From Candidatus Aenigmatarchaeota archaeon (GTDB lineage: Archaea > Aenigmatarchaeota > Aenigmatarchaeia > Aenigmatarchaeales > JACQIB01): a stretch of DNA of 61,483 nt. The notes beneath the pieces were generated by a model, which was given only the letters and a program-made list of their open reading frames with translations, made no database searches and was not told the DNA's origin. Location: assembly GCA_046760225.1 (NCBI GenBank), contig JBHIDR010000001.1, positions 1-61,483 of the forward strand. Reading direction: 5' to 3'. Position numbers and translations under genes: made by a program. Shown here piece by piece: positions 40,408 through 47,157 of this stretch (positions within the stretch are counted from its first letter, which is position 1; each line of letters begins with the position of its first letter).

Positions 40408-40543
40408 GCTCTGAATTGGAGAATAAAGGATAAATGCTTAATGCTGGCGAGTTTTAATGCTCCAATGCGTTGCCCACGGGTATTTCCAATTAAATGGAAA
40501 TGGAGGTGATCCAGCCGCACCTTCCGGTACGGCTACCTTGTTT

Positions 40544-40892
40544 ATCAAGGTGAAAAATAGCAGACGCGGTTCCCATCCCTAAAAGAAGAAATATTGCCTT
40601 TATTGGACTTCCATGGGCTGGTATTACGTTTCAATTTGAAGTTCTCTCTGGGAAGATTCAAGTTGTTGCTCCACTTTCCAGTCAAATCCTCCTTGTGTGT
40701 AGTTTCTGCATACACATCCACTTTTATCCTCTCTTCCGGAACCCATTCTTTCAGTATGTCAACTGTGAACCGAATTATGGAATCCGAGGAGTTGAATATC
40801 TGTATATGCTTTCTATTGATGAAACCGTCACCAACTATCAGTCCAGAAATCCAATAGAGATGAGAATCGCCTGGAGCCATCTTGTCACCTTT
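40544..40892 (-). mobile_element. 16S intron inside the 1492 primer site
   Basis: The exon reads ggctaccttgtt | 349 nt | atgactt, where GGYTACCTTGTTACGACTT is expected. Confidence 0.7.
40545..40880 (-). CDS. short single-motif LAGLIDADG endonuclease-like ORF (111 aa, possibly degenerate)
   Basis: It has one LAGLIDADG motif (YWISGLIVGDGFI). The ORF fills the intron almost end to end. Confidence 0.55.
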   Translation of the reverse strand: MAPGDSHLYWISGLIVGDGFINRKHIQIFNSSDSIIRFTVDILKEWVPEERIKVDVYAETTHKEDLTGKWSNNLNLPRENFKLKRNTSPWKSNKGNISSFRDGNRVCYFSP

Positions 40893-41049
40893 ATGACTTT
40901 CGACCTCCAGAAAAGCTGTTGTTCATTCTATATAACTCTTACTGAAGTTAGCCTTCCTCGCGGGCCCCCGGCTCGACTCTGCCCGCTCCTATTGCTAGGT
41001 CACGGAGAGAGCCTCACCGAGAATCCACTCAGATGGCTTGACAGGCGGT

Positions 41050-41763
41050 TTACACGAGATGGTAGTGACGTTTCAAGATATCTCTAACAAGTTTATTTTT
41101 CTCAGTGCCTTTATGAGAACCCCTAACAGTTTTAAGGCCTTTAATAAACCCAATCTTTTCATGGAACTTTTTTATTTCAGACTTTCTCTTTATGAAAACA
41201 AGTGATGTTCCCCTTACACCAACCTTGATATCAACTTTTTTGAACATCTGGATTATCTGGTGCCGTAAAATCGGATGTCCAACCCGAACAATTACTTCAT
41301 CGTTTCTTTTATCAGAGCCTACTACAGGTCCTCCATCACAAGAGCAAAATATTTTCAGATATTCTGCTGTTTCCTTTGGTCCGGCTTTCAAGACTGACTT
41401 TGGGAAGGATGCTGGTGGATAAAATTTTTCATCAAACCCTATAGGCTTACATCTCTTGCAGCTTGGTCCTAATTGACTAGTACCCTTAGTTACCGGGCAA
41501 GCATTTTGTTGACCGGTTGCACATGGCATTGTCCTAAAACTCGTAGACAAGTCAAAAAGAGTCTCACATAGAGGTTTTGAAAATACTTCAAACTGTTTAC
41601 TATTTTTTCGACAAACCTTATATCCCAAATCCTTTGCCAGATCTCGAAAAACTTTTTGTAAAACCTCTGTTGTATTTGTGAACGTGACCCTTTGGTCTTT
41701 ATGTCTGACACCTCCTTCTGCAAGCAGGAGAACAGCCATCTTATTGACTATTTTTTTCTTCAT
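41050..41763 (-). CDS. double-motif LAGLIDADG homing endonuclease with Cys-rich linker
   Basis: The motifs are MAVLLLAEGGV and LKIFCSCDGGPV, with the linker CATGQQNACPV...CKRC between them. The ATG start was taken at MKKKIVNK. Confidence 0.7.
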   Translation of the reverse strand: MKKKIVNKMAVLLLAEGGVRHKDQRVTFTNTTEVLQKVFRDLAKDLGYKVCRKNSKQFEVFSKPLCETLFDLSTSFRTMPCATGQQNACPVTKGTSQLGPSCKRCKPIGFDEKFYPPASFPKSVLKAGPKETAEYLKIFCSCDGGPVVGSDKRNDEVIVRVGHPILRHQIIQMFKKVDIKVGVRGTSLVFIKRKSEIKKFHEKIGFIKGLKTVRGSHKGTEKNKLVRDILKRHYHLV

Positions 41764-41773
41764 ATGTATATGC
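41050..41773 (-). mobile_element. 16S intron inside the 1392/1406 site
   Basis: The exon reads gacaggcggt | insertion | gtgtgcaa, where GACGGGCGGTGTGTGCAA is expected. Confidence 0.65.
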
Positions 41774-41781
41774 GTGTGCAA

Positions 41782-41886
41782 CTAGTATAAATAACAAGGG
41801 TCCCACAAAGGCAAAACTCACTTTCAGGTCACCACTCATCCCTGTGTGCTTCTCCGAAGATTAGCCTCGACTAAGTCTTCTAAAGA
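41782..41886 (-). other. ORF-less ~105-nt insertion next to the 1392 site
   Basis: In archaeal 16S, gtgtgcaa is normally followed directly by GGAGCAGGGAC. Here aaagagcagggac appears only about 105 nt later. The boundaries are approximate. Confidence 0.4.
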
Positions 41887-42017
41887 GCAGGGACTTATTC
41901 AGCGAACGAATCCATGTGCTGGAAAAATTAGTGCAGCTTCTCTCAGCACTTTATGACGTTCGCTTATTCTCCTAGGTGGCCGCCCTTGAAGCGGACATCT
42001 ATCTAGAGATTCCAGCT

Positions 42018-45099: not shown

Positions 45100-45156
45100 T
45101 TTGGGGAAAGGCCGCATAGTATAATTTGTTTTTATATTCATAAATACGACCCTTCT
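45100..45156 (-). other. 57-nt AT-rich ORF-less insertion in the ~880 region
   Basis: The sequence reads gcggccgta | tttggggaaaggccgcatagtataatttgtttttatattcataaatacgacccttct | ctccccaggcggc, where GCGGCCGTACTTCCCAGGCGGC is expected. Confidence 0.5.
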
Positions 45157-45257
45157 CTCCCCAGGCGGCCCGTTTAACATCTACACTCCGGCACTGCATA
45201 TCCACGTAGGACATGCAACACCAAACGGGCATCGTTTACAGCTGGGACTAACTGGGT

Positions 45258-46011
45258 GTTTAGTGGGATGGTAGAAAACATTTAATTCTGGCAATCTTTG
45301 CCGGGTGGGATATAAAAACAATATCACAGAATTTGGCAATGTTTTGTTTACCGTAAATGTATATTTCATATTCGGGATTTTTTCTTCTATATCTTTCATA
45401 GAGACTCAATTTGATTTTTTTCTTCTGTAAAAACTCTATTATGAAATCATAGAGTTCGATGCAGCTGGTAGTGAAATTTATTTTTGCTTGTCTTTTACCA
45501 ACGTGCCCTTCTGAGTCAAAAAGACCTCCGGTATAACTTGCCTTTAACTCATCACTTAGACCATTGATGAATGTTGGAAGTTTCAGTTTTTTTCGTACTG
45601 AGCCCCTAGGCACCTCAAGTACTTCTGTGAAGTACCTGAAAAGAATGCTGTTTTTTACATGACTGTAATATGAACTCCTTTTCTTATCGTGGAAAATGTT
45701 TAATTGGATTCCAAATACATTTTTGAACATTTTGTTCAAGACCTTCTTATGGAATTCTAAACATTTGTCGGTGATATGAATTATTTGGAAAGACATATTA
45801 CCATCGCCATGAATTTCTCCCAACAATCTACAAAGGTCATTTGTAAAGTCTGTTGGAAGCTTTACAGCATATGGAGATCTTGCGCAAGTGAATTTTTTGT
45901 TTCTTTTTTGGATGTCTCTGTGTCTTTGAAGAAAATCCCTTACCCGGCATTCTAATATAGTAATATATTAGAATAGTCGCCAAGGATTCTTATTATTTTC
46001 TCTTCTCCCAT
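45258..46011 (-). mobile_element. 16S intron (~754 nt) inside the 806 primer site
   Basis: The exon reads gggactaactgggt | insertion | atctaatcc, where GGACTACnnGGGTATCTAATCC is expected. Confidence 0.75.
45260..45826 (-). CDS. double-motif LAGLIDADG homing endonuclease
   Basis: The motifs are MLGEIHGDGNM and YTGGLFDSEGHV. Size is 188 aa. It is AT-rich relative to the flanking exons. Confidence 0.75.
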   Translation of the reverse strand: MLGEIHGDGNMSFQIIHITDKCLEFHKKVLNKMFKNVFGIQLNIFHDKKRSSYYSHVKNSILFRYFTEVLEVPRGSVRKKLKLPTFINGLSDELKASYTGGLFDSEGHVGKRQAKINFTTSCIELYDFIIEFLQKKKIKLSLYERYRRKNPEYEIYIYGKQNIAKFCDIVFISHPAKIARIKCFLPSH

Positions 46012-46278
46012 ATCTAATCCAGGTCGCTCCCCCAGCTTTCGTCCCTCACCGTCGGACTCGTTCTAATCTGGCGCCTTCGCCACAGGCGGTCCTCCACGGA
46101 TTAAAGGATTTAACCCCTACACGTGGAATACCCCAGATTTCTCCCGATCCCAAGCCCAGTAGTATCCTCAGCACGCCCTGCAGTTAGCTGCAGGATTTCA
46201 CCAAGGACTTGCTGAGCCGGCTACGGACGCTTTAGGCCCAATAATTGTGATCACCACTCGCAGCGCGGGTATTACCGC

Positions 46279-46315
46279 TTACCGTGCTGGCAGCCAATTA
46301 CTTAACTACTAGCAT
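46279..46315 (-). other. 37-nt insertion splitting the 515/519 universal site
   Basis: The sequence reads gtattaccgc | ttaccgtgctggcagccaattacttaactactagcat | ggcggctggc, where GTATTACCGCGGCGGCTGGCAC is expected. Confidence 0.55.
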
Positions 46316-46501
46316 GGCGGCTGGCTTACGGAGATAGCAGCCATATTAACCACTAAAAATATTTTGACTACTATCTTACCCGTCTGGCCCACTGCTTATT
46401 CCTCCAGCGATCGAGACTGGAGAAAAGGCTATGCAGAGCATAGCCACTCGAGGTCCCCTTCTCACGCGTGAGCGCATTGGAAAGTTTTCGCGCCTGCTGC
46501 G

Positions 46502-46535
46502 ACTTCTACCGAGGTAAGAACGCATCTTCACCTCG
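46502..46535 (-). other. ~34-nt insertion splitting the ~340 site
   Basis: The sequence reads ttttcgcgcctgctgcg | acttctaccgaggtaagaacgcatcttcacctcg | tccgtaggccc, where ..CTGCTGCGCCCCGTAGGGCC is expected. The insert forms a hairpin (gaggtaaga/tcttcacctc). Confidence 0.5.
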
Positions 46536-47157
46536 TCCGTAGGCCCTGCCTTCATGTCTCAGAAGGCATCTGGGGGCTCCCACTCTCATGGCCCCTACGC
46601 GTTATCGGTTTGTGAGGATTTTACCCTCACAACGGCCTGATACGCCGCAGTCCCATCCTTAGGCGCCGGAGCTTTCAGCTTCGGAACATTCCAGTATCCG
46701 AAGCCTATGGGGCATTGAGCTCAGTTTCCCGAGTGTATTCCCCACCTAAGGGCAGGTTAACTACGTGTTACTCAGCAGTGCGGCGAGGGCTTAACCCCTC
46801 TCGCCTCGCATGGCTTAGTCGGACCCCGATAGCGGTGATCTCCGGCAGGATCAACCGGAATTACGGAGAAAAACACACATGCACAAATTGTAATGTGTCC
46901 CTGTGCATTAGAGTTTCACCTACTCGCCAACATCAGACAAAAATATTAACTTTTGCCCTCATTCTTTTGCGGGGTTGGAAATAATTCTTCATCGCAGCCC
47001 GTGGTTCTGAAAGCCACGCATTAAGCGTTTACATCATTACCGCATGCCTATGGCTGAACTCGAATTAAGCCGAAAATTGCAAGCACTTCCGTGCCCGCAG
47101 TAACATAGCACAGCAGCGCTGTGTTATTTCCCCCGCAGTAAGAAAAATACTTCTTAC

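Follow-up and report, generated by a model that had tools for sequence, protein, structure and literature searches.

What kind of sequence expands a small-subunit (SSU) ribosomal RNA (rRNA) gene to 6,361 nt, and can such a gene still supply a functional product? The question is raised by a 61,483-nt stretch of DNA from Candidatus Aenigmatarchaeota archaeon (assembly GCA_046760225.1, contig JBHIDR010000001.1), here called the window, whose positions are used throughout. The gene lies on the minus strand and is interrupted by 18 insertions (I1 to I18). The intron interpretation offered in a preliminary description of this DNA is supported by a bulge-helix-bulge (BHB) splice motif at every insertion, whose cut sites, if used, would give back the conserved 16S sequence, and by relatives in which intron-less versions of the I7 and I8 sites equal the predicted spliced sequence. 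We consider it highly probable that the locus is a functional archaeal 16S rRNA gene with 18 BHB introns.

The interrupted 16S gene

40502-46862, minus strand: archaeal 16S (SSU) rRNA gene, 6,361 nt, 19 exons and 18 introns (Rfam RF01959, reading by eye, splice model and alignment to Escherichia coli rrsH)

The archaeal SSU model RF01959 matches two blocks on the minus strand, 46858-45164 (model positions 4-828, 648 bits) and 43448-42935 (model positions 890-1284, 180 bits). The 3' third of the gene is too fragmented for cmscan and was missed in the Rfam run at gathering threshold. Read by eye on the minus strand, the remainder of the 16S appears in small pieces, the last being ...GCGGCTGGATCACCTCC at 40502, with the 3' end reading ...GGATCACCTCC. 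The coordinates given in the preliminary description were right, and the strand can now be added.

Without its 18 insertions the 16S is 1,485 nt long and every universal motif is back. Relative to E. coli rrsH, the spliced sequence regains GTGCCAGCCGCCGCGGTAATAC, GGATTAGATACCC, the 900-960 block, GCACACACCGCC(T)GTCA, AAGTC(A)TAACAAGGTAGCCGTA and the 3' end GGATCACCTCC, i.e. the 530 loop, the 790 loop, the 900-960 and 1390-1410 regions and the 3' end are all restored. The 18 introns total 4,876 nt with a GC content of 36.6%, and the 19 exons total 1,485 nt with 57.1%, in agreement with the claim that the insertions are the more AT-rich. The shortest exons measure 6, 7, 10, 11, 16 and 18 nt. Six of the introns are long (754, 820, 747, 918, 794 and 350 nt) and almost filled by an open reading frame (ORF), while twelve are short hairpin introns of 31-57 nt (33, 52, 37, 57, 31, 41, 35, 48, 36, 41, 32 and 50 nt).

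This inventory revises the preliminary one. The six long ORF-bearing insertions are real and five had been sized to within 1-3 nt, the one put at ~724 nt being actually 794 nt. The short insertions, previously counted as six or seven, are twelve, which brings the total to 18 and not 12-13; one described as a 105-nt insertion is in fact two introns (52 + 37 nt) with a 10-nt exon between them. In E. coli numbering the introns follow positions 347, 516, 526, 793, 890, 908, 919, 947, 1102, 1199, 1226, 1309, 1347, 1363, 1391, 1397, 1492 and 1499. Individually, with central-helix pairs out of four and with outer and inner helix lengths where scored, they are:

46504-46536, minus strand: I1, 33 nt, after 347; hairpin mini-intron; central 4/4 (ctac/gtag), inner 8 bp; minimum-energy fold reproduces the motif
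46326-46377, minus strand: I2, 52 nt, after 516, within GUG|CCAGC of the 530 loop; central 4/4 (acgg/ccgt), inner 12 bp; minimum-energy fold agrees, z = -2.9
46279-46315, minus strand: I3, 37 nt, after 526, separated from I2 by a 10-nt exon; central 4/4 (gccg/cggt), inner 4 bp
45258-46011, minus strand: I4, 754 nt, after 793 (790 loop and 806R site); contains ORF188; central 4/4, inner 5 bp
45100-45156, minus strand: I5, 57 nt, after 890; central 3/4, inner 12 bp
44262-45081, minus strand: I6, 820 nt, after 908; contains ORF270; central 4/4, outer 3 bp, inner 4 bp
44220-44250, minus strand: I7, 31 nt, after 919; central 3/4, outer 3 bp, inner 10 bp
43445-44191, minus strand: I8, 747 nt, after 947; contains ORF250; central 4/4, with covariation
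43256-43296, minus strand: I9, 41 nt, after 1102; central 4/4, outer 2 bp, inner 4 bp
43117-43151, minus strand: I10, 35 nt, after 1199; central 4/4, outer 3 bp, inner 5 bp
43042-43089, minus strand: I11, 48 nt, after 1226; central 4/4, inner 6 bp
42041-42958, minus strand: I12, 918 nt, after 1309; contains ORF277; central 4/4, outer 6 bp, inner 12 bp
41967-42002, minus strand: I13, 36 nt, after 1347; central 4/4, inner 3 bp; minimum-energy fold reproduces the motif
41910-41950, minus strand: I14, 41 nt, after 1363 (helix 43 loop); central 4/4, outer 8 bp, inner 6 bp
41850-41881, minus strand: I15, 32 nt, after 1391; central 4/4, outer 2 bp, inner 5 bp
41050-41843, minus strand: I16, 794 nt, after 1397, separated from I15 by a 6-nt exon; contains ORF243; central 4/4, inner 6 bp
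40899-40948, minus strand: I17, 50 nt, between A1492 and A1493; central 3/4 and inner 6 bp in the homology register
40542-40891, minus strand: I18, 350 nt, after 1499, separated from I17 by a 7-nt exon; contains ORF111; central 4/4, inner 6 bp; no group I match

The complementary termini noted earlier for the 917-nt (actually 918-nt) insertion, I12, form a 12-bp helix, 42957-42946 with 42058-42047. Mapping of the insertion sites to E. coli likewise bears out the claim that the classical primer sites (340F, 515F, 806R, 915/926, 1100, 1392/1406 and 1492R) are all split, so that amplicon surveys would either miss the organism and its relatives or assign them a wrong length.

Splice motifs at the junctions

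Scanning the whole gene for any BHB-compatible pair gave 1,083 matches and was dropped as too noisy; the motif was therefore scored at the junctions fixed by homology, with three registers allowed per junction and random window positions as the null. The layout tested comprises an outer helix, a 4-nt central strand at the 5' exon end, a 3-nt bulge cut after the second base, an inner intron helix, the 4-nt complement near the intron 3' end and a second 3-nt bulge. At 15 of the 18 junctions the central helix is complete and the inner helix measures 3 bp or more; at least three of the four central pairs form at all 18, each of which has an inner helix of 3-12 bp. The null frequencies are 0.0011 for the complete pattern and 0.0077 for three or more pairs (binomial P ~5e-35), and the occurrence of the motif at all 18 homology-defined junctions is not due to chance. 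Seventeen introns start with an A, located in the bulge, and most end in AA or AT.

These motifs bear directly on the possibility that splicing removes just the long elements with ORFs, and that the mature rRNA keeps some or all of the short insertions in the form of expansion segments. Expansion segments do exist in archaeal and eukaryotic rRNAs, several of the mini-inserts are stable hairpins able to protrude (e.g. I14 in the helix 43 loop, and I1), and minimum-energy folds do not always show the BHB. However, the motif is present at twelve of twelve short inserts in the exact register that restores conserved sequence, and individual inserts are precisely missing in relatives (see below). 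Location also argues against retention, as expansion segments occupy variable regions whereas all 18 insertions lie in conserved stretches. Because insertions fall in the 530 loop, the 790 loop and the 1400/1500 decoding region, retained segments are implausible; extra hairpins are not expected to be tolerated in functional cores such as the G517-530 loop, 526, 1391 and A1492/A1493. We regard retention as improbable.

The long insertions could alternatively be self-splicing group I or group II introns, as in bacteria of the candidate phyla radiation (CPR) and in some DPANN 23S genes. Group I introns exist in archaeal rRNA, one of them at SSU/1498 beside I18, and LAGLIDADG genes are common in such introns. 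Against this, no group I (Intron_gpI) or group II Rfam match was obtained at E <= 1 over positions 39500-48000, and there is no room for a ribozyme core since each long intron is nearly all ORF. Moreover, each long intron has a complete four-pair BHB at its ends, and that at site 947 covaries. A ribozyme origin is consequently very unlikely. The insertions instead combine what characterizes BHB introns, namely the motif geometry, a stable-RNA host gene of an archaeon, compensatory changes where homologues exist, and no ribozyme core.

Several observations nevertheless weigh against the reading of the locus as a functional gene with 18 BHB introns. The outer exon-exon helix reaches at least 2 bp in 8 of the 18 motifs, is a single base pair in three others and is missing (0 bp) from the remaining seven, so that many are of the relaxed HBh' type and not of the strict hBHBh' form that tRNA-splicing endonucleases (EndA) of the alpha4 and alpha'2 types require. 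Motifs lacking the outer helix need an EndA of broad specificity, and neither EndA nor the ligase RtcB was found among the ORFs of the window. In the homology register, I5, I7 and I17 reach only three of four central pairs. The best register of I17 (40900-40947, 48 nt, central helix 4/4) conflicts with the conserved product length, as it leaves two extra A residues in the product; for I7 the register is backed by an uninterrupted site in a relative that equals the exact predicted junction, and the 57-nt version of I5 by both E. coli and the same relative (L004, introduced below). The motifs on either side of the 6-nt exon compete for the same nucleotides, and ordered splicing must be assumed there. 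Unconstrained minimum-energy folds of the mini-introns with short flanks (ViennaRNA) recover the BHB register in about half of the cases (z from -0.03 to -3.5), which offers modest support and is not relied on. Among the encoded proteins, ORF243 matches Pfam LAGLIDADG_3 with E = 0.003 and 18.2 bits, under the curated cut-off of 22.5, and ORF111 has no match in Pfam, NCBIfam or the PDB.

Relatives, independent assemblies and flanking sequence

The closest test of the splice model comes from a Rifle aquifer contig (L003/L004), which is the locus of the sole ORF270 homologue among 5.8e9 proteins. Its 16S gene contains homologues of I5 and I6, lacks I7 and I8, has a 33-nt intron at the I4 site and carries an extra 56-nt intron near 867. 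Across the I7 and I8 sites its sequence is identical to the predicted spliced junctions. The 61-nt homologue of I5 shows a compensatory change in the inner helix, and the central helix of I6 reads gCtg/caGc in the window and gTtg/caAc in L004, the exon change being matched by an intron change. Site 947 is occupied at eight further loci (L005-L008 and L012-L015, L013 repeating the assembly of L012 and L015 that of L014; two stem from the NCBI metagenome-assembled genomes GCA_964607835.1 and GCA_973518755.1). Over five of these lineages, 95% of the cells in the BHB and inner helix are paired and 8 pairs are changed on both sides; none of 500 shuffles scored as high, and slid registers are 34-60% paired.

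Several sites are shared with relatives that hold introns of different size:

Site 526: 37 nt in the window, 38-nt insertion in L014
Site 793: 33 nt (L004), 63 nt (L005), 206 nt (L014) and 754 nt (window)
Site 908: 148, 816 and 820 nt
Site 919: 31 and about 638 nt
Site 1199: 35 nt (window) and 37 nt (BHB intron in L014)
Site 1309: 918 nt (window) and 908 nt (orthologous intron in L006)
Site 1363: 41-99 nt, the relatives L012, L014 and L006 having BHB introns of 75-99 nt; L007 has a 49-nt insertion nearby

The metagenomic relatives carry 5 to 11 insertions in their 16S genes, and the window gene is the most extreme among those compared. As the relatives are interrupted too, an intron-rich 16S is a trait of a wider set of uncultivated archaea. 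The 16S at 3936-7567 of L014 (GCA_973518755.1, contig CCXVYR010000077.1) has ~11 insertions, most of them with a BHB, at sites including 526, 727, 794, 919, 947, 972, 1187 and 1361, and appears to be a second, unremarked case of a highly intron-rich archaeal 16S. In L007 the 23S gene (2535-7494) spans 4,960 nt relative to a 2,987-position model and contains two LAGLIDADG ORFs, indicating that the intron load reaches the large-subunit (LSU) rRNA in this group. A pattern search of genome contigs for DNA with the double 516/526 mini-intron gave no match.

Could the window gene be a decaying, intron-invaded pseudogene, with a second, uninterrupted 16S elsewhere making the ribosomes? The visible part of the genome is 61 kb with a single 16S gene (46862-40502); a second rRNA copy elsewhere in the genome is conceivable and counts against the favoured reading. 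A heavy load of mobile elements is, furthermore, typical of dispensable DNA, and no linked 23S/LSU rRNA gene is detectable with Rfam within the window. However, the exons are intact, all universal motifs checked are kept, and the exons show compensatory base-pair changes compared with E. coli (U1404-A1497 replaces C-G, and stem pairs of helix 45 are swapped), a pattern that points to selection. The 18 splice motifs are likewise all intact, as are the BHB of the processing stem described below and the six ORFs, the same arrangement recurs in independent assemblies, and relatives from other sites have similarly interrupted 16S genes in ordinary 16S-tRNA-23S operons, the three genes being linked in the more distant L006 and L007. 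We judge a pseudogene to be slightly less probable even than retention of the short inserts.

Least probable among the alternatives considered here is a chimeric error of metagenomic assembly, with pieces of rRNA joined to unrelated AT-rich DNA. Breaks and wrong joins at rRNA genes are frequent in short-read assemblies, and Logan contigs do end at 46807, 45196 and about 43325. Still, the exons are colinear, in a single orientation, and sum to a complete 16S, and a matched BHB at every junction is not producible by chimera formation. Logan assemblies from other runs are identical over 43323-45196 and 46807-51220 and show one mismatch and no gaps over 40513-43326. Those of SRR29324583 and SRR29324587 thereby cover 40513-45196 independently, reproducing 4.7 kb of the gene with I5-I18, i.e. 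14 of the 18 introns; homologous introns are in addition found in unrelated metagenomes. The exact-match contigs originate from the Red Sea Hatiba Mons vent field, at low temperature.

The sequence flanking the functional gene proposed here provides further BHB motifs:

46905-46936, minus strand: pre-16S processing stem, 5' strand, containing the BHB motif (ViennaRNA fold of the joined flanks)
40437-40468, minus strand: pre-16S processing stem, 3' strand (ViennaRNA fold of the joined flanks)
39844-40407, minus strand: HD-domain protein gene, between 16S and tRNA-Ala
39707-39806, minus strand: tRNA-Ala(UGC), downstream of the 16S (Rfam tRNA, 53.4 bits)

The processing stem consists of a 14-bp helix, a GGUG/CAUU central helix with AAA bulges on both strands, and a 9-bp helix. 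This canonical BHB points to EndA-dependent excision, and probably circularisation, of the pre-16S. The tRNA-Ala gene, missed by ARAGORN and by the Rfam run at gathering threshold, contains a 28-nt intron (39747-39774) at the non-canonical position 33/34; its BHB (central helix 4/4, outer 2 bp, inner 9 bp) uses the 5' strand of the anticodon stem in the central helix CACC/GGTG. The seven 16S motifs without outer helix and this non-canonical tRNA intron would together imply an EndA of broad specificity.

Elsewhere in the window, a gene at 22323-26099 (plus strand) encodes a 1,258-amino-acid T2SSE/FlaI-type ATPase with an intein and a LAGLIDADG domain (Pfam Intein_splicing 3.6e-25, LAGLIDADG_3 8.7e-16), by its Pfam matches a further selfish element in the same genome. 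A 250-amino-acid ORF with two LAGLIDADG motifs (59152-59904, minus strand; Pfam 2.1e-16) lies in surroundings without an rRNA, a tRNA or any other Rfam family, and either stands alone or belongs to an intron or intein that escaped recognition. A pair of nearby genes, 4376-5188 and 6789-7556, encodes methyltransferases of the TRM5/TYW2 type. About half of the window ORFs of at least 150 amino acids, including proteins of 600-880 amino acids, are without a Pfam family. The nearest match of the transcription factor TFB shares 61% identity (an ENA contig) and the next ~31% (haloarchaea). The host lineage seems to be very poorly sampled and deeply divergent.

Intron-encoded proteins, proposed mode of splicing and comparison with known systems

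45260-45826, minus strand: ORF188, in I4; two-motif LAGLIDADG homing-endonuclease-like protein (Pfam LAGLIDADG_3, E = 2.8e-12)
44256-45068, minus strand: ORF270, in I6; helix-turn-helix (HTH) and nuclease-like; ends 6 nt inside the 3' exon (44256-44261)
43388-44140, minus strand: ORF250, in I8; XRE-like HTH and C-terminal PD-(D/E)XK-fold domain; runs 57 nt into the 3' exon (43388-43444)
42018-42851, minus strand: ORF277, in I12; weak N-terminal HTH (Pfam CI-repressor HTH, E = 0.004); stop codon in the 3' exon (42018-42040)
41050-41781, minus strand: ORF243, in I16; 237 amino acids if started at the ATG at 41763; candidate LAGLIDADG-like protein
40545-40880, minus strand: ORF111, in I18; single LAGLIDADG-like motif ISGLIVGDGF, seen by eye

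Only three of the six ORFs appear LAGLIDADG-like, one firmly and two weakly. ORF188 scores 47 bits with LAGLIDADG_3 (cut-off 22.5) and weakly matches the endonuclease PI-PfuI (1dq3), whereas ORF243, which is also called as a 237-amino-acid gene on an independent contig (L016), and ORF111 are the weak cases. Searches of NCBIfam and of PDB sequences with the intron ORFs were uninformative. Three ORFs (ORF250, ORF277 and ORF270) cross the 3' splice site, their stop codons being encoded by the exon. In relatives the ORF250-type stop is a TAA within the conserved exon sequence GCGGTTTAATT; the window exon has a C there, and the ORF is 19 codons longer.

ORF270 and ORF250 are paralogues (30% identity, E = 2e-12), each with a weak XRE-type HTH. 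The ORF250 family comprises 17 clusters, and every member whose genomic context was read (L005-L008 and L012-L015) is located at 16S site 947. An AlphaFold model of ORF250 built on a 19-sequence family alignment has a predicted local distance difference test (pLDDT) score of 83.9, and the best Foldseek matches of its C-terminal alpha/beta domain in the PDB are all PD-(D/E)XK nucleases (E 1e-4 to 1e-2: Can2, AF1548, R.BspD6I, BbvCI, the R2 endonuclease, NucS/EndoMS and Bax1). In the putative catalytic region of the family, NVDF is invariant and IIE(I/V)T conserved; the lysine is not at its canonical place, and invariant R171 and K186 follow downstream. A profile search of the family against PDB sequences gave marginal HTH matches only, and no sequence homology to characterised PD-(D/E)XK homing endonucleases. 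On the strength of the model, ORF250 and ORF270 would at most resemble this endonuclease class in the way they work, as candidates and not as proven members.

For ORF277, a 56%-identical orthologue resides at the same site in L006, and there are only 13 matches among 1.84e9 representative proteins. The single-sequence AlphaFold model (pLDDT 35) is unusable, and hhalign gives a probability of 2% for a relation to the ORF250 family, although a suggestive INVE...CFDM region is aligned. ORF277 (42825-42851), its L006 orthologue (6774-6800) and an unrelated LAGLIDADG ORF in the L007 23S intron (3117-3143) share the start MKIKNFQ, which in the window and L007 extends to MKIKNFQKN. Such a common start across different protein families could be a conserved leader, a start module or an RNA element.

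In combination, these observations lead to the following proposal for the functional, 18-intron 16S gene. The primary transcript would fold such that each exon-intron pair presents two 3-nt bulges flanking a 4-bp helix, and EndA would cut both bulges of each intron, i.e. 36 bulges plus the processing stem. An RtcB-type ligase would then join the 19 exons and circularise the introns, rebuilding the 1,485-nt rRNA including its 6-, 7-, 10- and 11-nt pieces. The same EndA probably frees the pre-16S at the BHB of the flanking stem and splices the adjacent tRNA-Ala. It is conceivable that the introns are excised without religation of all exons, the ribosome then operating with a fragmented 16S: fragmented rRNAs are known in other organisms, and pieces as small as 6 and 7 nt would seem hard to ligate. 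Yet the exons of 6-18 nt carry essential nucleotides (1392-1397, 1493-1499 and 517-526) that would be hard to hold in place without covalent joining, and the natural substrates of RtcB are the products of EndA. Incomplete ligation therefore appears about as unlikely as a ribozyme origin of the long introns.

With regard to the origin of the 18 BHB introns, the six long ones would be mobile elements that spread at the DNA level by homing via their encoded endonucleases (one clear LAGLIDADG, two possible LAGLIDADG, two HTH plus PD-(D/E)XK-fold proteins and one candidate relative, ORF277). The twelve hairpin introns may be ORF-less forms cut down to the splicing minimum: they could be what is left of ORF introns, or they could have been carried along by co-conversion with a homing intron next to them. 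Mini-introns lie 6-18 nt from four of the six ORF introns. Comparison of the mini-introns with each other and with the whole window revealed no significant similarity, and they are thus not a recently amplified repeat family.

That archaeal 16S genes contain BHB introns with LAGLIDADG genes, as well as hairpin-only introns, is well known. A survey from 2015 recognised 13 sites of insertion for the 16S genes of Archaea as a whole, nearly all in hyperthermophilic Crenarchaeota (Jay & Inskeep 2015, PMC4496867), and explains ORF-bearing and hairpin introns 7-8 nt apart by co-conversion (Pyrobaculum sites 901/908 and 1205/1213). The window gene resembles the 16S introns of Thermoproteales, Desulfurococcales and Aigarchaeota (Itoh 2003; PMC4496867) in the BHB core, the long LAGLIDADG introns, the short (<50 nt) hairpin introns and the preference for the most conserved regions, with universal primers interrupted; sites 908, 919 and 1391 are shared exactly. 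It differs from that survey in having 18 sites in one gene, ~10 of them unlisted (347, 516, 526, 890, 947, 1309, 1347, 1363, 1492 and 1499), in GC content (exon 57% and intron 37%, compared with 67% and 57%), in a host that is not a hyperthermophilic crenarchaeote (TFB ~31% to named archaea) and in at least two ORFs that are not LAGLIDADG. The insertion density, which the preliminary description called exceptional, is so relative to the 2015 catalogue, with the qualification that the relatives have 5 to 11 insertions, and CPR bacteria up to 16 per rRNA gene.

Those bacteria, likewise uncultivated lineages with rRNA genes loaded with insertions, have up to 16 insertions per gene and 16S genes of up to 5.6 kb; many of the insertions encode LAGLIDADG endonucleases and are cut out of the transcripts (Tsurumaki et al. 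2024, PMC11270868). They are, however, without EndA and BHB, their insertions being group I/II-like or unclassified, whereas the present host is an archaeon (RF01959) with all insertions of the BHB type, most of them (31-57 nt) under the 100-bp threshold of the CPR study. Group I introns occur alongside BHB introns in the rRNA of Woesearchaeota, Pacearchaeota and Nanohaloarchaeota, one at SSU/1498 (Nawrocki, Jones & Eddy 2018, PMC6125680); in contrast, I18, which adjoins this position, has a 4/4 BHB, is mostly ORF and shows no detected group I structure. The nearest functional parallel for the ORF250 family may be I-Ssp6803I, a characterised PD-(D/E)XK homing endonuclease from the group I intron of a cyanobacterial tRNA-fMet (PMC3384342), since both are intron-encoded and the C-terminal domain of the family is predicted to have a restriction-endonuclease-like fold. 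The family differs in having no detectable sequence similarity to it, an added XRE-type HTH, a location in archaeal BHB introns at 908 and 947 and no canonical (D/E)xK lysine. Multiple non-canonical tRNA introns are known from Thermoproteales, Korarchaeota and ARMAN, which have broad-specificity (alpha-beta)2 or epsilon2 EndA (PMC3239211, PMC5829648). The relaxed BHB, the weak outer helix and the non-canonical position (here 33/34 in tRNA-Ala) are common to both systems, but the proliferation here is in an rRNA gene.

No report of a comparably intron-dense archaeal 16S, or of PD-(D/E)XK endonucleases in BHB introns, was found in the open-access papers and bioRxiv searched. As far as the searchable literature goes, the number of introns in one gene, the ~10 unlisted sites, among them those in the 530 loop and between A1492 and A1493, the very short exons, the divergent host and the PD-(D/E)XK-fold ORFs are new. 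At the broadest, this would be a divergent lineage with BHB introns at near-eukaryotic density (~1 per 82 nt), in which at least 18 ordered EndA/RtcB events, including the ligation of 6- and 7-nt exons, build the rRNA and the introns spread partly through a new site-specific HTH plus PD-(D/E)XK family; to this picture as a whole we give an even chance.

The finding has consequences for annotation as well as for the biology of rRNA introns. Rfam-style annotation yields just two fragments of this 16S, and annotation tools would mis-read the gene. Eighteen protein-catalysed events, exons of 6-7 nt and overlapping BHBs raise the question of the order and fidelity of splicing and of the EndA substrate range. 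The same sites occupied by introns of 31 to 918 nt across lineages, together with mini-introns beside ORF introns, provide concrete material on the gain of introns, the loss of their ORFs and co-conversion, and the HTH plus PD-(D/E)XK proteins are candidate rRNA-gene-specific endonucleases. If the proposed reading is true, the gene and its relatives would offer a natural setting in which to follow the gain of protein-spliced introns, their reduction to minimal hairpins and their fixation.

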